Part shown: piece after piece, positions 31,406 through 41,736 of the stretch
Numbering within the stretch: the first letter of the stretch is position 1
Layout: each line of letters starts with the position of its first letter
Virus record (IMG/VR): IMGVR_UViG_3300021400_002728
Location: 197,154-261,153 of that record
Source of the DNA: a virus
Taxonomy: Duplodnaviria; Heunggongvirae; Uroviricota; Caudoviricetes
Strand: one strand, 5' to 3'
DNA: 64,000 nt
Translations under genes and position numbers: made by a program
The notes under the pieces: generated by a model
Seen by the model: the letters and a program-made list of their open reading frames with translations, nothing else
Told to the model about the DNA's origin: nothing
The model's database searches: none

Positions 31406-33223
31406 TTATATAATAAACACTTGAATTGACTCATATTCTTTCTTTTGATTACCGTCTTTTCTAGTAAAATGACTAGATTTCTGTTGTAAAATAATCTCTT
31501 CTACAAAAGAATAACCTAAATCCAAGATTTGTTTATTCATATCTTTCTTAAATCTTTGATTGATTTGATAAGCAACTATCTTACAATCAGATTTCTGAAT
31601 AACTGATTTCCACCAAGTTAAAAACTCTTCATAAGAAAGATTCTCTGCACCATTATCAGTATAGATTTCAGTATTCCAATATGGTGGACAAGTAAATAAT
31701 ATATTACTAGTAAAGCTACCTTTACTTGAATCCCCATACTTAACTGTAGCATTGATATTATACTTATCAATCAAAGTATTAAGACCTTCCACAACATTAT
31801 CATTTATATCAAATCCTAAATATCTGATTCCATATTGATGACAAGTAAGCAGTCTCTCACCCCAACCAGAACAAGGGTCATATATAGTAGAAGGCTTATA
31901 TTTTTCAATAAACTGTATCATACCAGTATTATCAAATGTACTATACTTTCTAAGTTTACCAGAAATACTAAGTCCATTTAATAAGGCAAGATTAGAAAGT
32001 TGATGTGGTAACTTATCTAAATACTTGTATCTGTTTATGAATAGCTCACCTAATACCAATGGATTATCAAGCATTTCAATTTCTCTTTTAAAATACTCAT
32101 TCCAGTTAGCAAGTTTAGCTATTTGAGTCACATTCTTAATTTTGTCTGGAAGTGTGTCATGTTCAGAAAAGTCTCTGTTAAATATAAACATAAACTCTTC
32201 TTCTGACCAACATACTAGATAATTAAGATTGTTTTGCTGAGCAGTCTCTAACTTCTTTAAGTCTGATTCAGTCCATACATGAATAGCTATGTCAAAAAAT
32301 TTAGTATGCTTTGCTTTCCATTCTTCTAAAACTTTAATATCTTCTGAATTATTAGAATCAAAGAAATGACCACCATGTGTCCAAAAGAAATTACATTCTA
32401 CATATAAATCTAACTCAGGCACATACATATCACATTCAAATGGATAAACATCTGAAGTATAATGATGTACAGCATTAGGAAATATAGACTGTAATAAATC
32501 ATAACATTTATCTTCTGACTGAGATTTTCCATAGGTTCCATGCTCATGTAGAGTTCTTCTACGTTTAACCTTAAATTCTTCAGAACCTAAATATTGTCTA
32601 CTTTTGTTAGACTTCCCATAATTATCATAGCCATATCTGGACAGCATTGTAGATTTACCTTTTTCTCTAACTTCCTTAGATTTCATAGGGTTATCTACAC
32701 CATAATGCTCCATATATGATTGTTTCTTCTTTTCAAGAACTTCTGAGGAAGCATAAACATTATCTACTCCATAACGTTCTTGAACTGTTTGCTTACACTT
32801 TTCTCTATTAGTAAAAGTAGAGTTGCCATATCGCTTTTCTTTAGTAGCAGCAATTTTCTTAGCTGTTTCTGAACTAGCCATTCCAACTCCACCATGATTT
32901 TCAATAATAGTTTGTTTAATTTTCTGTTTTACTTCATCTGCTTGAAATGGATTTTCTACTCCATACTTTTCTAAATTAGTCTGTCTAGCTTTCTTTAGTC
33001 TAGACTTAGCATTTGCAGAATTTTTTTCTGACATTATTTTAGCTCTACATTTTTTACAACGTCCTCTTTGTTGATAAAGTTTACTTGGTAATATTTCAAA
33101 ATCACCATGTTCTTTACAAGTAACAATAATAGGAGTTGTATAAGATTTCCAATCTATATTAGAAAAATCATACTCTGGAAATAACTTTTCACATTTTTCT
33201 AAAAATTGTTCCTTTGTAATCAT
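31406..33223 (-). CDS. homing-type endonuclease (Zn-ribbon, KYGV repeats, Vsr/PD-(D/E)xK-like) fused to an amino-DNA-methyltransferase domain
   Basis: CKEHG..CKKC; repeated 'TNLEKYGVEN'; CDMYVPELDLYVECNFFWTH; IYDPCSGWGERL (SAM motif) and FTCPPYW (catalytic-like motif); start at MITKE behind AAGGAG. Confidence 0.8.
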   Translation of the reverse strand: MITKEQFLEKCEKLFPEYDFSNIDWKSYTTPIIVTCKEHGDFEILPSKLYQQRGRCKKCRAKIMSEKNSANAKSRLKKARQTNLEKYGVENPFQADEVKQKIKQTIIENHGGVGMASSETAKKIAATKEKRYGNSTFTNREKCKQTVQERYGVDNVYASSEVLEKKKQSYMEHYGVDNPMKSKEVREKGKSTMLSRYGYDNYGKSNKSRQYLGSEEFKVKRRRTLHEHGTYGKSQSEDKCYDLLQSIFPNAVHHYTSDVYPFECDMYVPELDLYVECNFFWTHGGHFFDSNNSEDIKVLEEWKAKHTKFFDIAIHVWTESDLKKLETAQQNNLNYLVCWSEEEFMFIFNRDFSEHDTLPDKIKNVTQIAKLANWNEYFKREIEMLDNPLVLGELFINRYKYLDKLPHQLSNLALLNGLSISGKLRKYSTFDNTGMIQFIEKYKPSTIYDPCSGWGERLLTCHQYGIRYLGFDINDNVVEGLNTLIDKYNINATVKYGDSSKGSFTSNILFTCPPYWNTEIYTDNGAENLSYEEFLTWWKSVIQKSDCKIVAYQINQRFKKDMNKQILDLGYSFVEEIILQQKSSHFTRKDGNQKKEYESIQVFII

Positions 33224-33320: not shown

Positions 33321-34164
33321 TTAATTGTAGAGATACTCGTATATCTCCAATGCAGTCATTTCTTTTTCTTCGCCGGCTACACGAACTTTAATTTTTTCGT
33401 CTTTATCAAACTCACGACCGGTAATCCAAATTTTACCAGTCCAGTCTGTGGGCTTATAGTCTGCGACGTCATTCAAACCAATTTTCTGCATCTTCTTATT
33501 ACGAGAATACATAACTGAACGTCCAATTCTTAAAATCTCTGCAGCCTCTTGAACAGAGTTAGCAACGGCAACTACACCATTCATTCCCTTAAAAGGATAA
33601 ACATTATTAGACTATATCATATTCTCTAATTAGAGAACCCTACCACTTCGATTTAATAGACTGATATTAGACTAATCTCATCTAAATGCTAACCATATTG
33701 GCTCTACTCTACTTACTTCGTGCAAATGCCTTATTTTCATACCGTATTTCAGGTCCTATAGCTTTCGATAGTCGTTGAACCCGTCTCTGTTACCAAGACT
33801 TGGCTGCTGATTTTCCATTCTTATAACCCTTAGGATTTAACCATAGGTCATCCAAATTATTTTTTCTGCTTTCGCTGCATATCACGTTTAGTATTTCTCT
33901 TACGTTGTAGCTAATTTGGCATTAGGTTCGTATTCATTATAAGAATACTGTTCCAGCAATTCAATAGGGAATTTTTCACGCATGTCACCATACGCGGGAG
34001 CTTCATCCTTTAAAAACGCACTCCGTTTGCTTTATGTCTACAAGCGCAACCGATATTTTATTATTATGTTCGATTCTTTAGGCTTTCGCCTAAATACAAT
34101 GGAATATGACATTCCTCAAAGTGACACTATTGTGCGAAATGAGTCCTCGTTTAGCTGTCTCCAT
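33321..34164 (-). CDS. fragmented FtsK/SpoIIIE-like ATPase middle segment with N-terminal intein C-tag; join(34164..34093, 34071..34020, 33601..33321), 134 aa
   Basis: GGAGG RBS; reconstructed METAKRGLISHN|SVTLRNVIFHCI-EHNNKISVALVDIKQTE-FYPFKGMNGVVAVANSVQEAAEILRIGRSVMYSRNKKMQKIGLNDVADY follows the FtsK pattern between Walker A and Walker B. Confidence 0.75.
33602..34019 (-). mobile_element. group I self-splicing intron (418 nt, no internal ORF; IA-like)
   Basis: P AATTGCTGGAA (33961-33951), Q AATCAGCAG (33812-33804), R GTTCAACGACTA (33780-33769), S ATGATATAGTCT (33620-33609); P1 GGAGT/GCTCC with U.G at the splice site; P10 AAAGGATGAA/TTTATCCTTT; terminal G; splicing restores the frame. Confidence 0.9.
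34072..34095 (-). other. candidate translational bypass (ribosome hop) element
   Basis: ATT TAG GCG AAA GCC TAA AGA ATC: Ile take-off, stop inside TTTAGGC-GAAA-GCCTAAA hairpin, Ile landing 21 nt later. Confidence 0.6.
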
Positions 34165-35257
34165 TGTAATCATCACCTCCTTTTATAAACTGTTTAGTTT
34201 GAGCTATATTTTTACATTTTCTACAACAGTACATTTGATAACCTCTAGTGAAGTTAATATACTTAGTAGGTTTATTACAAACTAAACATTTCCCTTCATT
34301 ATTAGATTTTATATATGTATCATAATATTCTTTGCAAGTAATCTGTTCATTAAATCTAATATGTGCAGACAGATAATTACCATTTTGAAAAGTCTGATTA
34401 CATATTAGACATGTCATTGGATTATTTTTTATTTTAGGTACATATACAATAGTTCTTGGTTTATCATACTTAAATTTTTTATACCAATATTTATCTTTAT
34501 ACTTCTCTTCACAATACTCTAAATATTGCTTAATATCACTATATGACCATACTATAATGTTGTTTGTATCAATGCATTTTTGTTTATCAGAGTCTTTTAA
34601 TGTGCCATCTGAATTTAGATATTGATTACCTTTAACTTCTATAATATCAGCATTTATTTTAAAGTCAGGAAAATATTTATGTGTAATATTATTTGAGTCA
34701 GTATAAGTCAATATGATAGGTAAACGTTCTATAGGTATATTATGATCTTTATGCCAAATATATACGGCAACTTCCCAAGATGAATCAAATAATTGATTAT
34801 CATAACTATAATATTTTCTAGACTGTTGGATATTTTTGTCTTGCATTGGATGTTCAACACCATATTTAGCTAAACTGTTCTTCTTATGTTCAACCTTAAA
34901 ATAATCAGTTTTGAATATTTCATCTTGTCCATATTTAGCTTTTATAGTTTTCCTAATCTTAGATCTAACTTCTTTAGAACTTAATACACTTTCTACACCA
35001 TATCTTTCTAGATTAGTGTCTTTATGTTTCTGTTTACATTGTTCTGTATTATGAGAACATCGTAAGCAATATTCAAAATATCCATATATAACATTTTTGA
35101 ACTTAGTAGGTTTTCCGCAGGTTTTACAAAATCCATCATTGGTTTTATGTAAATAAGTATCATAGTATTGTTTAGTTTCTATTTTATGTGCTTGCTTAAT
35201 ATGTCCTCCAAATCCAATATTAGATTCAAATTCTTTTCCACAAATAAGACATTTCAT
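34151..35257 (-). CDS. homing-type endonuclease (Zn fingers, KYGV repeats, TnsA-like PD-(D/E)xK)
   Basis: CLICG..H...H, CKTCG; FDSSWE, YFPDF, IIEVKG; duplicated Zn module at C-terminus. Confidence 0.8.
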   Translation of the reverse strand: MKCLICGKEFESNIGFGGHIKQAHKIETKQYYDTYLHKTNDGFCKTCGKPTKFKNVIYGYFEYCLRCSHNTEQCKQKHKDTNLERYGVESVLSSKEVRSKIRKTIKAKYGQDEIFKTDYFKVEHKKNSLAKYGVEHPMQDKNIQQSRKYYSYDNQLFDSSWEVAVYIWHKDHNIPIERLPIILTYTDSNNITHKYFPDFKINADIIEVKGNQYLNSDGTLKDSDKQKCIDTNNIIVWSYSDIKQYLEYCEEKYKDKYWYKKFKYDKPRTIVYVPKIKNNPMTCLICNQTFQNGNYLSAHIRFNEQITCKEYYDTYIKSNNEGKCLVCNKPTKYINFTRGYQMYCCRKCKNIAQTKQFIKGGDDYNGDS

Positions 35258-41379: not shown

Positions 41380-41736
41380 TTATTGCGTATATATAGCAAA
41401 TTGATGATCTGGTGCATCAGTGGTTATACACATTACAACTTCAGGATCTATCTTCTTAATAGATTTGATGATAGGTCCATCTTTAGTTCCAACGGGTCGT
41501 CCTTTATACCAGTCAAACTCTTGGTAAATGCCTTCAGCATCTATCGTATACATTTTATCATTTATGTATACGTTCCATTGATGTACATTAGAACATTTAA
41601 CTTTTCCATTGCTAAAAGTTATTTCATACATATTGTAGGATAACTTAGCTTTAGTCTTTTCAATGACTTTGTGAAATTCGCCATCAGTTCCTAAGACTAA
41701 ATCACCTACTTGAACATCTGCGATAGTCTTCTTCAT
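41380..41736 (-). CDS. free-standing Hint/intein middle fragment (class-3-like), lacking both splice junctions
   Basis: KTIADVQVGDLVLGTDG..KV (end of block A/N2), VKCSNVHQW (block B H-x-W), VMCITTDAPDHQF (block F with Cys); own RBS and terminator. Confidence 0.8.
   Translation of the reverse strand: MKKTIADVQVGDLVLGTDGEFHKVIEKTKAKLSYNMYEITFSNGKVKCSNVHQWNVYINDKMYTIDAEGIYQEFDWYKGRPVGTKDGPIIKSIKKIDPEVVMCITTDAPDHQFAIYTQ

Follow-up and report, generated by a model that had tools for sequence, protein, structure and literature searches.

A fragmented FtsK/SpoIIIE-like ATPase gene of a jumbo phage carries a group I intron, a candidate translational bypass gap, and one end of a putative three-piece split intein

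The window analyzed in this work is a 64,000-nt stretch from the genome (G000) of a 394-kb jumbo phage of the gut or rumen. The gene examined, X_M (minus strand, 34164-33321), is the middle fragment of an ancestral membrane-anchored FtsK/SpoIIIE-like ATPase. The features of the locus, all on the minus strand and given from upstream to downstream, are as follows.

41380..41736, minus strand: M1, a free-standing Hint core of 118 aa limited to blocks B to F (match to a purpose-built Hint HMM with E 2.4e-11, over positions 15-128 of its 150)
34151..35257, minus strand: a free-standing homing-endonuclease-like ORF of 368 aa with zinc fingers and DUF7487 (PF24308, E 1.2e-16; PHROG homing endonuclease, E 2.6e-15)
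34129..34164, minus strand: start codon and 12-codon head, METAKRGLISHN, which would be the IntC (intein block G) in a split intein of three pieces
34093..34128, minus strand: first C-extein coding stretch, SVTLRNVIFHCI, with Ser +1 at 34128-34126 and the candidate take-off codon ATT at 34095-34093
34072..34092, minus strand: non-coding 21-nt insert, a candidate translational bypass gap with the landing codon ATC at 34074-34072
34020..34071, minus strand: second coding stretch, consisting of EHNNKISVALVDIKQTE and the first base of the Phe codon, without a start codon of its own
33602..34019, minus strand: group I intron of 418 nt without an ORF, internal guide GGAUGAA-GCUCC at 34008-33997
33321..33601, minus strand: last exon, FYPFKGMNG...EYLYN, stop at 33323-33321, 157 homologues
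31406..33223, minus strand: a second homing-endonuclease-like ORF with a methyltransferase-like C-terminal domain (PF24308, E 7e-21; PHROG homing endonuclease, E 1.9e-17, and DNA methyltransferase, E 4e-7)

A sequence-only reading of this DNA had claimed that removal of 34092-34072 and 34019-33602 leaves a clean 405-nt frame of 134 aa, and this proved exact: the coding segments 34164-34093, 34071-34020, and 33601-33321 join to 405 nt, or 134 codons, with a single terminal stop. The frame starts at the ATG at 34164, downstream of a GGAGG at 34180-34176 (minus strand). When the reconstructed product was aligned with natural uninterrupted orthologues, as that reading had proposed, 125 of 131 residues were identical in P0002 and 124 residues in P0004, and no internal gap was found at either junction. 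The ORF caller sees 87 aa of X_M and nothing else, in agreement with the remark that the ORF track shows only the last exon. Homing-type genes had been placed on both sides of X_M, and both flanking ORFs were indeed found to match PHROG homing-endonuclease families; the stop of the 368-aa ORF overlaps the X_M start, and the second ORF lies just downstream of X_M. A megablast search of phage records with the X_M region gave no match, and the window was found to contain neither an Rfam match at the gathering threshold nor a tRNA.

The claimed likeness of X_M to FtsK is real, but it is weak for the fragment alone. Orthologues of the fragment scored 20.8 to 24.3 bits with PF01580 (profile positions 53-135; curated cut-off, 24), as compared with 37.9 bits for an unsplit 383-aa orthologue and 57 bits for P0300, and the PHROG FtsK/SpoIIIE-like match had an E value of 6.5e-8. 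Neither Walker A nor Walker B is complete within X_M. Walker A would arise only after ligation to an N-terminal piece that is encoded 88 kb from X_M and supplies the glycines and the lysine of the motif, and Walker B belongs to a separate gene at about 180 kb in G000 (L005 ORF 1821-1432), which is fused to the X_M part in P0300. Each of the three processes proposed for this gene, namely, RNA splicing, ribosome hopping, and protein trans-splicing, is independently supported, but X_M supplies only the middle of the ATPase.

The 418-nt insert is identified by its sequence as a group I intron. RF00028 aligns with it over its full length (model positions 1-253) at 25.3 bits and an E value of 4.4e-4, below the gathering score of 50, and its core shares 73 to 79% identity over about 160 nt with introns of Staphylococcus Twort-like and Enterocloster phages. 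It is preceded by U (34020) and ends in G (33602), as is the case for all nine intron copies (9/9). P1 pairs GGAGU with GCUCC, with a U.G pair at the 5' splice site, and P10 pairs UUUAUCC with GGAUGAA. Both helices covary in L036, L037, and L040, the P1 variants being GGAGU with GCUCC, CGAGU with GCUCG, and AGAGU with GCUCU. The intron-less alleles L010, L014, and L015 read uninterrupted ...ACA GAG TTT TAT CC..., so that the proposed junction matches natural uninterrupted orthologues to the letter. In the proposed route, the intron would first self-splice from the mRNA, joining GGAGU to UUUAUCC. Two related introns are present elsewhere in G000, and in different relatives the same insertion site is used by introns of 418 nt and of about 350 nt, two families unrelated to each other.

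The 21-nt insert (TAG GCG AAA GCC TAA AGA ATC) is missing from P0002/L010. Together with the preceding bases it can form a perfect 7-bp hairpin with a GAAA loop, UUUAGGC-GAAA-GCCUAAA (34094-34077; -9.3 kcal/mol, z -2.6), with the UAG in the 5' arm. Homologous inserts of 24, 29, and 38 nt occupy the same site in relatives, in which the stem is kept and loop and tail vary. Their last codon is ATT or ATC, or GTT where the take-off codon is GTA; hairpin-type inserts at this site all (11/11) end in ATT or ATC. These inserts belong to a larger family in metagenomic relatives, for which 27 distinct inserts were found at three sites of the gene (after L13/R14, I21, and I34), with lengths of 5, 6, 9, 10, 11, 15, 17, 18, 21, 24, 29, and 38 nt; in 10 of them the length is not divisible by 3. 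TAG opens 25 of the 27, and in 19 to 20 of the 27 the final codon is identical or synonymous to the codon before the insert, with imperfect take-off/landing pairs in some relatives (CGT/AGT, CGT/CAC, ATT/GTC, and ATT/ACC). The hairpins show compensatory changes (CUU..AAG versus CUC..GAG), and an identical site-B stem occurs with different loops. The insert is not a multi-copy mobile element, as it is found once per genome, its only other match being a tRNA stem.

Programmed translational bypass is the best reading of this insert family. The take-off and landing codons AUU and AUC are both decoded by a phage-encoded tRNA-Ile(GAU), a stop follows the take-off codon inside a stem-loop, and the frame resumes whatever the length of the gap. 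The ribosome hop suggested by the sequence-only reading has thereby gained a recurrent family with bypass anatomy, and removal of the insert reproduces uninterrupted orthologues to the letter. The ribosome would translate METAKRGLISHN-SVTLRNVIFHCI and stall with peptidyl-tRNA-Ile paired to AUU and UAG occupying the A site, slide past the 21-nt hairpin insert, re-pair on AUC, and resume at GAA, which would give the hop-spanning peptide NVIFHCIEHNNK with the junction HCI-EHNNK. There is no evident Shine-Dalgarno-like (SD-like) element in the gap, the 21 nt containing no GGAGG-like motif, and for this reason the mechanism may differ in detail from that of T4 gene 60. In seven loci a relative of the 368-aa ORF adjoins the gene start or lies close upstream of it, and a 21- or 24-nt site-B hairpin is present in all of them (7/7); the 21-nt insert probably makes the site resistant to the homing endonuclease whose gene lies immediately upstream.

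The third interruption lies at the protein level. Unsplit orthologues read ...GSTGGGK/SVTLRN, i.e., GSTGGGK-SVTLRNVIFHCIEHNNK, and the gene is cut here between the K and S of Walker A (slashes mark this cut or a splice junction). Intein-free unsplit alleles (L020-L023 and P0232-P0237) carry GGGKSV at this conserved insertion site; a search of IMG/VR for an unsplit allele, made to test for absence of the core gene described below, found none. The N-terminal piece (G000 319960-318668) shares 60% identity with the unsplit orthologue over residues 1-259 and ends in ...GSTGGGK followed by a 15-aa tail that resembles intein block A. Such tails ([AS]IYxxQxVE) are conserved in forms without a downstream endonuclease gene, and their Gln6 is invariant. 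The 12-aa head of X_M, ..GLISHN, resembles block G, and 13 orthologues all retain G-L-I-x-H-N-S-V in spite of numerous synonymous changes. A C-terminal His-Asn followed by Ser +1 is present in X_M (..GLISHN/S) as well as in two-piece forms (..HHN/S or ..SHN/S), and in two-piece and contiguous relatives ..GLIHHN or ..GGIISHN directly follows the intein core.

The split inside Walker A and the HN/S junction on which the claim of protein trans-splicing had rested are thus present, but an ordinary two-piece split intein is not, the core being a third, free-standing gene. Tail (15 aa) and head (12 aa) amount to 27 aa, and blocks B and F are found on M2, a free-standing intein core gene of 196 aa with its own ribosome binding site (RBS), located at G000 303296-302709, 72 kb from X_M. 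M2 ends exactly where contiguous and two-piece relatives run on into block G, and it shares 28 to 33% identity with the contiguous-relative family. An M2-like core is joined straight to ..GLIHHN/SV in L034, P0300, and 25 other representatives, and P0331 is fully contiguous. Contiguous, two-piece, and three-piece forms thus make up a comparative series for one insertion site. In the core family the block-B His and the block-F Cys, which in M2 are His48 and Cys186, are invariant, as are a Trp and a Thr.

Pfam did not recognise M2 as a Hint domain, and its best match by sequence to solved inteins had an E value of only 0.02; within the genome, PF14890 (Intein_splicing) gave no match and PF13403 only a weak match to a cis intein of the N-terminal piece, and a purpose-built Hint HMM was needed. 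An alignment-based AF2 model of the contiguous relative P0331 (residues 251-436) reached a pLDDT of 92 and a pTM of 0.85 and was used in place of a single-sequence model of the contiguous intein (pLDDT 34). Its top PDB matches were all inteins or Hint domains with a probability of 1.00, including VidaL and the class 3 DnaB intein. Complex prediction for tail, M2, and head gave 0.75, the best control scoring 0.48; 58 of 80 solved complexes attained that mark, as did 2 of 110 mismatched pairs. Contact agreement between runs was at least 45% and partner pLDDT at least 78, although this pass may partly reflect resemblance to solved split inteins.

We infer protein splicing from sequence and comparison. 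Residue 1 of the tail is Ala in G000, and either Ala or Ser in the relatives. Class 1 splicing, which needs a nucleophile at that residue, would therefore be impossible in this phage, and the tail fits only class 2 or class 3. Given the Ala or Ser at this position and the invariant block-F Cys, splicing is likely to be of the class 3 type. The N-terminal piece would first lose its own cis class-3-like intein, M2 would then bind tail and head, completing the Hint fold, and K would be joined to S, creating the Walker A motif GSTGGGKS. RNA trans-splicing was also considered for the cut and rejected: the ends do not resemble the splice sites of either group I or group II introns, and tail and head have evolved in the manner of translated sequence.

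Other accounts of the locus were weighed. The 21 nt might be translated, a suppressor tRNA or leaky termination reading TAG and TAA and adding X-A-K-A-X-R-I. This is very unlikely, although the insert is in frame, ARAGORN calls a weak tRNA with anticodon UUA (G000 114279-114350), TAG is seldom used as a stop (it ends 13 of the 212 long ORFs of the genome), and gene callers take some related 9-nt inserts with TAG=Q. The acceptor stem of the predicted tRNA(UUA) is poor, most long ORFs (168 of 212) end in TAA, the main stop codon, and in the closest relative, G001, the 24-nt insert holds three stops and no suppressor tRNA is called. Moreover, the RNA stem and the last codon are conserved, not the reading frame inside the insert, and read-through cannot rescue the 29- and 38-nt inserts at the same site, nor those of 5, 10, 11, and 17 nt at other sites. 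That X_M is a dead relic, inactivated by stops, intron, and split, with a likeness to orthologues that reflects only recent ancestry, is highly improbable. Such a view would fit two in-frame stops, a gene with neither Walker motif, and homing-endonuclease-like genes on both sides, but insert- and intron-bearing lineages have diverged to saturated synonymous sites with the protein kept. The decay in dN/dS that the sequence-only reading had named as part of a possible refutation is not seen, the median being about 0.10 (last exon, loci with inserts or introns; dS often saturated), and behind the stops, codons 22-34 of the second stretch have a pN/pS of 0.13 among 13 loci with a site-B insert, with variable sites by codon position of 6/2/12. 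In addition, a strong RBS and the start codon are retained, and four complete genomes all preserve head, tail, and M2 on separate genes. The suggestion that X_M may still be functional accords with this purifying selection.

It is also conceivable, if unlikely, that the pieces are never ligated and that tail and head are remnants of a decayed intein which only keep the two polypeptides attached to each other by non-covalent contacts, perhaps with M2 in between. Residue 1 of the G000 tail is Ala, and the same ATPase is also broken between X_M and the Walker B piece without any intein ends, so that non-covalent assembly is tolerated in this family. Against this, H, N, Ser +1, the block-B His, the block-F Cys, and Gln6 are invariant, constraints of a catalytic type that mere docking would not need, and an open backbone between the K and S of the P-loop should abolish nucleotide binding. 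The best-fitting solved structure is that of a class 3 DnaB intein, and class 3 inteins splice without a residue-1 nucleophile. If ligation does occur, the core might be M1 of the window rather than the distant M2. M1 (41736-41380), which has its own RBS and terminator and 55 free-standing homologue clusters, likewise lacks blocks A and G and sits 2 to 7 kb upstream of the X_M gene in G000, G001, L010/L011, and L024. It was initially taken as the X_M core and dropped once L034, P0300, and P0331 showed an M2-type core fused to block G. The M1-like core of P0300 lies in a different contiguous intein, PLALDTVV...KIFTHN/C, after Walker B, and the other split of the phage genome carries the matching ends PLSIDTLVEVKD and ..MIFTHN/C. 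Phylogenetic profiles of M1 and M2 did not separate them, because all four complete genomes (4/4) carry every piece. We consider a role of M1 in the X_M intein scarcely credible; most likely it serves the intein of the next ATPase piece (Z).

With the anatomy, the exact junctions, the comparative series, and the purifying selection established, the best explanation, which we hold to be probable though well short of certain, is that the X_M protein would be made by intron self-splicing, bypass over 21 nt, and a three-piece intein completed by M2. Several kinds of selfish element have colonised the ATPase gene, which is still under selection. There is perhaps an even chance that the wider picture holds in all its parts, i.e., that the P-loop is restored by a natural three-piece intein (a tail of 15 aa, a free-standing Hint core of 196 aa, and a head of 12 aa), that the inserts are a new and diverse bypass family (5 to 38 nt, three hot spots), probably serving as immunity patches against neighbouring homing endonucleases, and that the enzyme is assembled from at least four extein genes with three inteins, group I introns, and ribosome hops.

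We know of no demonstrated natural three-piece intein, such arrangements having so far been laboratory-made, and to our knowledge efficient programmed bypass is essentially that of T4 gene 60 and its homologues, with candidates in Streptomyces phages and yeast mitochondria. The literature consulted contained no earlier description of a natural three-piece intein or of this bypass family. If true, the bypass family would be a second, unrelated, and highly variable one, offering dozens of natural variants on what hopping ribosomes need. Their gaps range from 5 to 38 nt, some contain hairpins and others do not, and the landing codons are matched or nearly so. The family would also put to the test the view that hops originate as protection from homing endonucleases. 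The three-piece intein would show that Hint domains are workable from three gene products in vivo and may provide cysteine-poor, short-tag ligation parts (12- to 15-aa tags and a soluble core) for protein engineering. Contiguous, two-piece, and three-piece stages are all preserved for one insertion site, and the X_M locus illustrates the extent of selfish-element pile-up that one gene survives.

Gene 60 and its homologues have been called an isolated phenomenon confined to topoisomerase genes (Manning & Atkins 2022, bioRxiv 10.1101/2022.08.31.505936). The inserts resemble the T4 gene 60/MobA cassette (10.1101/2022.08.31.505936) in their matched take-off and landing codons, with a stop right after take-off. 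Further likenesses to gene 60 are a stem-loop at the start of the gap, an AU-rich 3' part of the gap, and an adjoining free-standing homing-endonuclease gene, the host in both cases being a split phage gene for a DNA enzyme. They differ in lacking sequence homology to it and in having an FtsK-like host gene instead of one for a topoisomerase; and, compared with the 50-nt gap and SD-like element of gene 60, the gaps are of 5 to 38 nt at three sites in one gene with no SD-like element seen. The intron, like those of Staphylococcus Twort-like and Enterocloster phages, is inserted in conserved coding sequence next to homing-endonuclease-type ORFs, although, unlike those, the X_M copy has no ORF.

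The atypical split inteins VidaL and AceL-TerL likewise have an IntN of about 12 to 17 aa with block A only, and VidaL is among the best fold matches, but here the IntC is cut again into a free-standing core gene and an 8- to 14-aa head. Both cuts, one following block A and the other preceding block G, fall where engineered S1/S11 and three-piece inteins are divided. For natural inteins, one-gene and two-gene forms are stated to be the only ones known (Weis et al. 2023, bioRxiv 10.1101/2023.01.30.526203). Fractured genes (Dassa et al. 2009, NAR, PMC2677866) are also phage or metagenomic genes split by an intein at a conserved site of P-loop type, with a free-standing homing-endonuclease gene at the break. 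Their halves flank the endonuclease gene in one locus, with an IntN of about 100 aa and an IntC of about 40 aa (PMC2677866), whereas the pieces described here lie 72 to 88 kb apart, each with its own adjoining endonuclease-like ORF, and the intein is in three parts. The parallel with fractured phage genes drawn by the sequence-only reading therefore holds for the endonuclease-flanked break, but not for the arrangement, as the N-terminal piece and X_M share no locus. Class 3 inteins (mycobacteriophage and Mycobacterium smegmatis DnaB; PDB 6bs8) share with this intein the lack of an obligatory residue-1 nucleophile, the invariant block-F Cys, an invariant Trp and Thr (here in the core family), which may correspond to the canonical WCT positions, and a phage origin, and 6bs8 fits the P0331 model with the lowest rmsd (3.7 A; TM by target, 0.72). 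Unlike class 3 inteins, the X_M intein has Ser at +1 and is split.

The record containing the window (394,266 bp, with direct terminal repeats) was judged complete, and related genomes, 290-470 kb in size, are uncultured and come from metagenomes of the animal-gut and rumen type. The window is AT-rich and carries nearly all of its genes on the minus strand, including one for the proposed middle fragment of an FtsK/SpoIIIE-like ATPase, the anatomy and exact junctions of which are established:

34180-34176 (-): strong ribosome binding site GGAGG, 5' of the ATG at 34164
34164-34093 (-): frame of 24 codons from this ATG
34092-34072 (-): 21-nt insert, opening with TAG (34092-34090); TAA four codons further on
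34071-34020 (-): frame open past both stops, without any start codon
34019-33602 (-): non-coding stretch of 418 nt
33601-33321 (-): exon 2, in which the frame resumes and ends

The three coding segments join into 405 nt, or 134 codons, and the product matches P0002, a natural protein without interruption, at 125 of 131 identical positions, so that the coordinates and 134-aa reconstruction of the sequence-only reading proved exact.

Where the P0002 gene (L010) reads CAT TGT ATC GAG CAT, the window has CAT TGT ATT [TAG GCG AAA GCC TAA AGA ATC] GAA CAT. About 30 related loci were gathered and aligned to the uninterrupted gene, and three sites turned out to carry short inserts repeatedly:

Site A: follows Leu13/Arg14
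Site B: follows Ile21 of P0002 (Ile24 in window-protein numbering)
Site C: follows Ile34, with the intron site four codons further 3'

TAG comes first in 25 of the 27 distinct insert sequences, the final codon equals the preceding codon or a same-tRNA synonym in 19-20 of them, and 10 have a length that is not a multiple of three. Examples are CTT[TAGCTT]AGG, CTT[TAGCAAGTGTAACTT]CGT, CTC[ATACGAGTGTAACTT]AGA, CGC[TAGAAACGT]AAC, ATT[TAGACGATT]GAG, and ATT[TAGCTGAATT]AAG; the site-B hairpin family (21, 24, and 29 nt) always ends in ATT or ATC, and a 38-nt insert, GTA[...GTT]GAA, has its own GNRA hairpin. The longer inserts form hairpins that take in the take-off codon or the TAG, and those at site A have a 3' arm complementary to the coding sequence upstream; stems are preserved via compensatory changes, and loops and tails are variable. 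Site-C inserts and the intron never occurred together in this sample. A dispersed repeat was ruled out, because the element occurs once per genome. Public gene calling set TAG=Q for L114 (111-527) and L115 (325-735), evidently because a 9-nt insert places TAG in frame; on short phage contigs, inserts of this sort can lead automatic assignment of the genetic code astray. All seven loci that have an ORF related to the upstream endonuclease-like one next to or near the gene start carried the site-B hairpin (21 or 24 nt). This pairing resembles the T4 MobA/gene-60 cassette, where the proposed role of the gap is protection of the site against the endonuclease (10.1101/2022.08.31.505936). The inserts described here may likewise shield against flanking endonucleases.

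The Rfam group I model aligned at full length to 34001-33602 (E 4.4e-4; 25.3 bits, under the gathering score). At 34008-33997, the internal guide GGAUGAA-GCUCC forms P1 with GGAGU at the end of the 5' exon, with U.G at the splice site, and P10 with UUUAUCC of the 3' exon, and the last intron base is G. These P1, P10, and terminal rules held in nine intron-bearing relatives, with compensatory changes in P1 (CGAGU/GCUCG in L036, AGAGU/GCUCU in L037) and in P10 (UCUAU/AUAGA). Three loci lacking the intron (L010, L014, and L015) are continuous at this point, and their reading matches the junction proposed earlier. Two different intron families (~418 nt and ~350 nt) use the same insertion site, and a paralogous gene just outside the window has two related introns. 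The orthologous loci L040, L041, and L042 have extra group-I-like insertions of ~320 nt near codons 65-68 and 80, so that in some alleles 400 nt of coding sequence accommodates two short inserts as well as two introns.

The ATPase is also split within Walker A. An unsplit protein of 383-385 aa (L020-L023 and P0232-P0237) contains transmembrane helices and an N-domain, followed by ...PQALCVGSTGGGK-SVTLRNVIFHCIEHNNK..., and shares the end point of the window gene; it passes PF01580 (FtsK/SpoIIIE) with 37.9 bits. The window gene starts with METAKRGLISHN|SVTLRN, and G-L-I-x-H-N-S-V is invariant in 13 orthologues, synonymous variation notwithstanding. The preceding part is encoded elsewhere in the record:

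Record positions 319960-318668: N-piece, 60% identity over residues 1-259

The N-piece reads ...CVGS, a 153-aa cis Hint insert, TGGGK, the tail AIYIDQSVEVQSDEV, and a stop. Relatives without the cis insert end in ...GSTGGGK plus [AS]IYxxQxVE.., with Gln6 invariant, and since no endonuclease gene lies 3' of their tail, its conservation is at the protein level. Together with the head (the start of the window gene before SVTLRN), the tail amounts to 27 residues, insufficient for a Hint fold. The cis insert is a mini-intein (L013 1620-1162 (-), record ~319.2-318.7 kb) between GS and TGGGK of Walker A, five residues away from the split site; it has Pro as its first residue, a block-F Cys, and the end YIYQ|T (mostly ..YTYN|T in relatives), and is present in ~70 homologues and absent in ~40.

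Two free-standing Hint cores were identified, M1 with an HMM built from this cis insert:

Window 41736-41380 (-): M1, 118 aa, blocks B to F only, without blocks A and G
Record positions 303296-302709: M2, 196 aa, with its own ribosome binding site, ending ...CFCISTDTGRYET

In L034, an M2-like core continues into ..GRYEL-NGLIHHN|SVTIRN.., the counterpart of the window gene, and this two-piece layout has 25 more representatives. All parts are contiguous in P0331 (N-extein ..GSTGGGK|SIWLES.., core, ..GGIISHN|SVALQN), and the series from contiguous to two-piece to three-piece is established. In other phages the window gene's product and the Walker B piece (~180 kb in the record) form one polypeptide (P0300), with a contiguous M1-like intein, PLALDTVV...KIFTHN|C, after the Walker B piece; the other short-ended split of the record has the ends ..PLSIDTLVEVKD and ..MIFTHN|C. 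Judged from these natural relatives, M2 belongs to the window gene and M1 most likely to the other split. M1 was rejected as the core for the window gene, the fused core in L034 and P0331 being of the M2 type and the M1-like intein of P0300 lying elsewhere. M1 stands alone as a conserved gene in 55 homologue clusters and four complete genomes and probably serves a second three-piece intein in the Walker B/C-terminal part of the same ancestral ATPase, with proposed ends PLSIDTLVEVKD* at ~179.5 kb and ..MIFTHN|C at ~195.6 kb.

The model of the contiguous intein has a pLDDT of 92; inteins make up all of its best PDB matches, with VidaL, gp41-1, and the class 3 DnaB intein among them. The three-chain prediction of N-tail, M2, and head scored 0.75 (runs 0.44, 0.75, and 0.87), a mark reached by 58 of 80 solved complexes versus 2 of 110 mismatched pairs; among the controls, replacing M2 gave 0.00 twice and replacing the head gave 0.48. 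Contact agreement between runs was at least 45% and partner pLDDT at least 78, with predicted contacts of tail residues to the block-B and block-F strands of M2 and of the head to the block-B region. This pass may be owed in part to solved split inteins, to which the sequence similarity of M2 is negligible.

Every coding stretch is under purifying selection. Compared between insert- or intron-bearing loci, exon 2 has a median dN/dS of ~0.10, with many pairs synonymous-saturated, and codons 22-34, 3' of the stops and without a start codon, have a pN/pS of 0.13, third positions being variable in 12 of 13 codons and second positions in two. These values contradict a dead gene and argue that the stretches past the stops are translated, in a frame that would be reached only by jumping the insert. 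The ribosome would hop from AUU to AUC. Alternatively, the 21 nt of the window copy, being in frame, could be read through by a weakly predicted tRNA(UUA); this fails, however, for the homologous inserts with lengths other than multiples of three. The tRNA, with an anticodon of the ochre-suppressor type, was called by ARAGORN at 114279-114350 (-) of the record among the 39 clustered tRNA genes of the phage; the acceptor stem is imperfect, and there was no such ARAGORN call in three related complete genomes.

At the protein level, the catalytic-type residues His-Asn, Ser+1, block-B His, block-F Cys, and tail Gln are conserved. M2, tail, and head would assemble and ligate K to S; with Ala or Ser as residue 1, the route would be of the class 3 type. 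The strongest alternative to this ligation step is that the pieces assemble non-covalently and are not spliced.

Assembly is presumably non-covalent at the break between the window gene and the Walker B half, which resembles a case of genes in pieces. The Walker B half has its own gene (L005 1821-1432 (-)) ~50 kb away, intein-like ends are absent here, and unsplit orthologues, too, end in ..EYLY at PF01580 profile position 135, as does the window gene (33321). The FtsK-like paralogue in L012 (record 261000-273000; 7602-4064 (-)) has a 41-aa IntC ending VFHN|SGKSVN, an endonuclease-like ORF overlapping it on the 5' side, and several group I introns, one holding another endonuclease-like ORF. 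Its N-piece (297743-296940) ends ..ILICGGTG|CMEENTPVMMYDTLVH*, and its intein therefore cuts Walker A elsewhere than that of the window gene; the middle part of this intein was not found. The window ORF 31406-33223 (-) fuses an endonuclease-like part (DUF7487 repeats) to a C-terminal methyltransferase-like domain (PPY motif; PHROG DNA methyltransferase, E 4e-7), an unusual pairing of a homing nuclease with a putative self-protecting methylase.

A literature search found neither the bypass family nor the three-piece intein of this locus described. Gene-60-type bypass has been described as limited to topoisomerase and MobA cassettes (10.1101/2022.08.31.505936). A further bypass candidate in the literature is from a Streptomyces phage. 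Natural inteins have been described in one-gene or two-gene form, and three-piece inteins as synthetic (10.1101/2023.01.30.526203).
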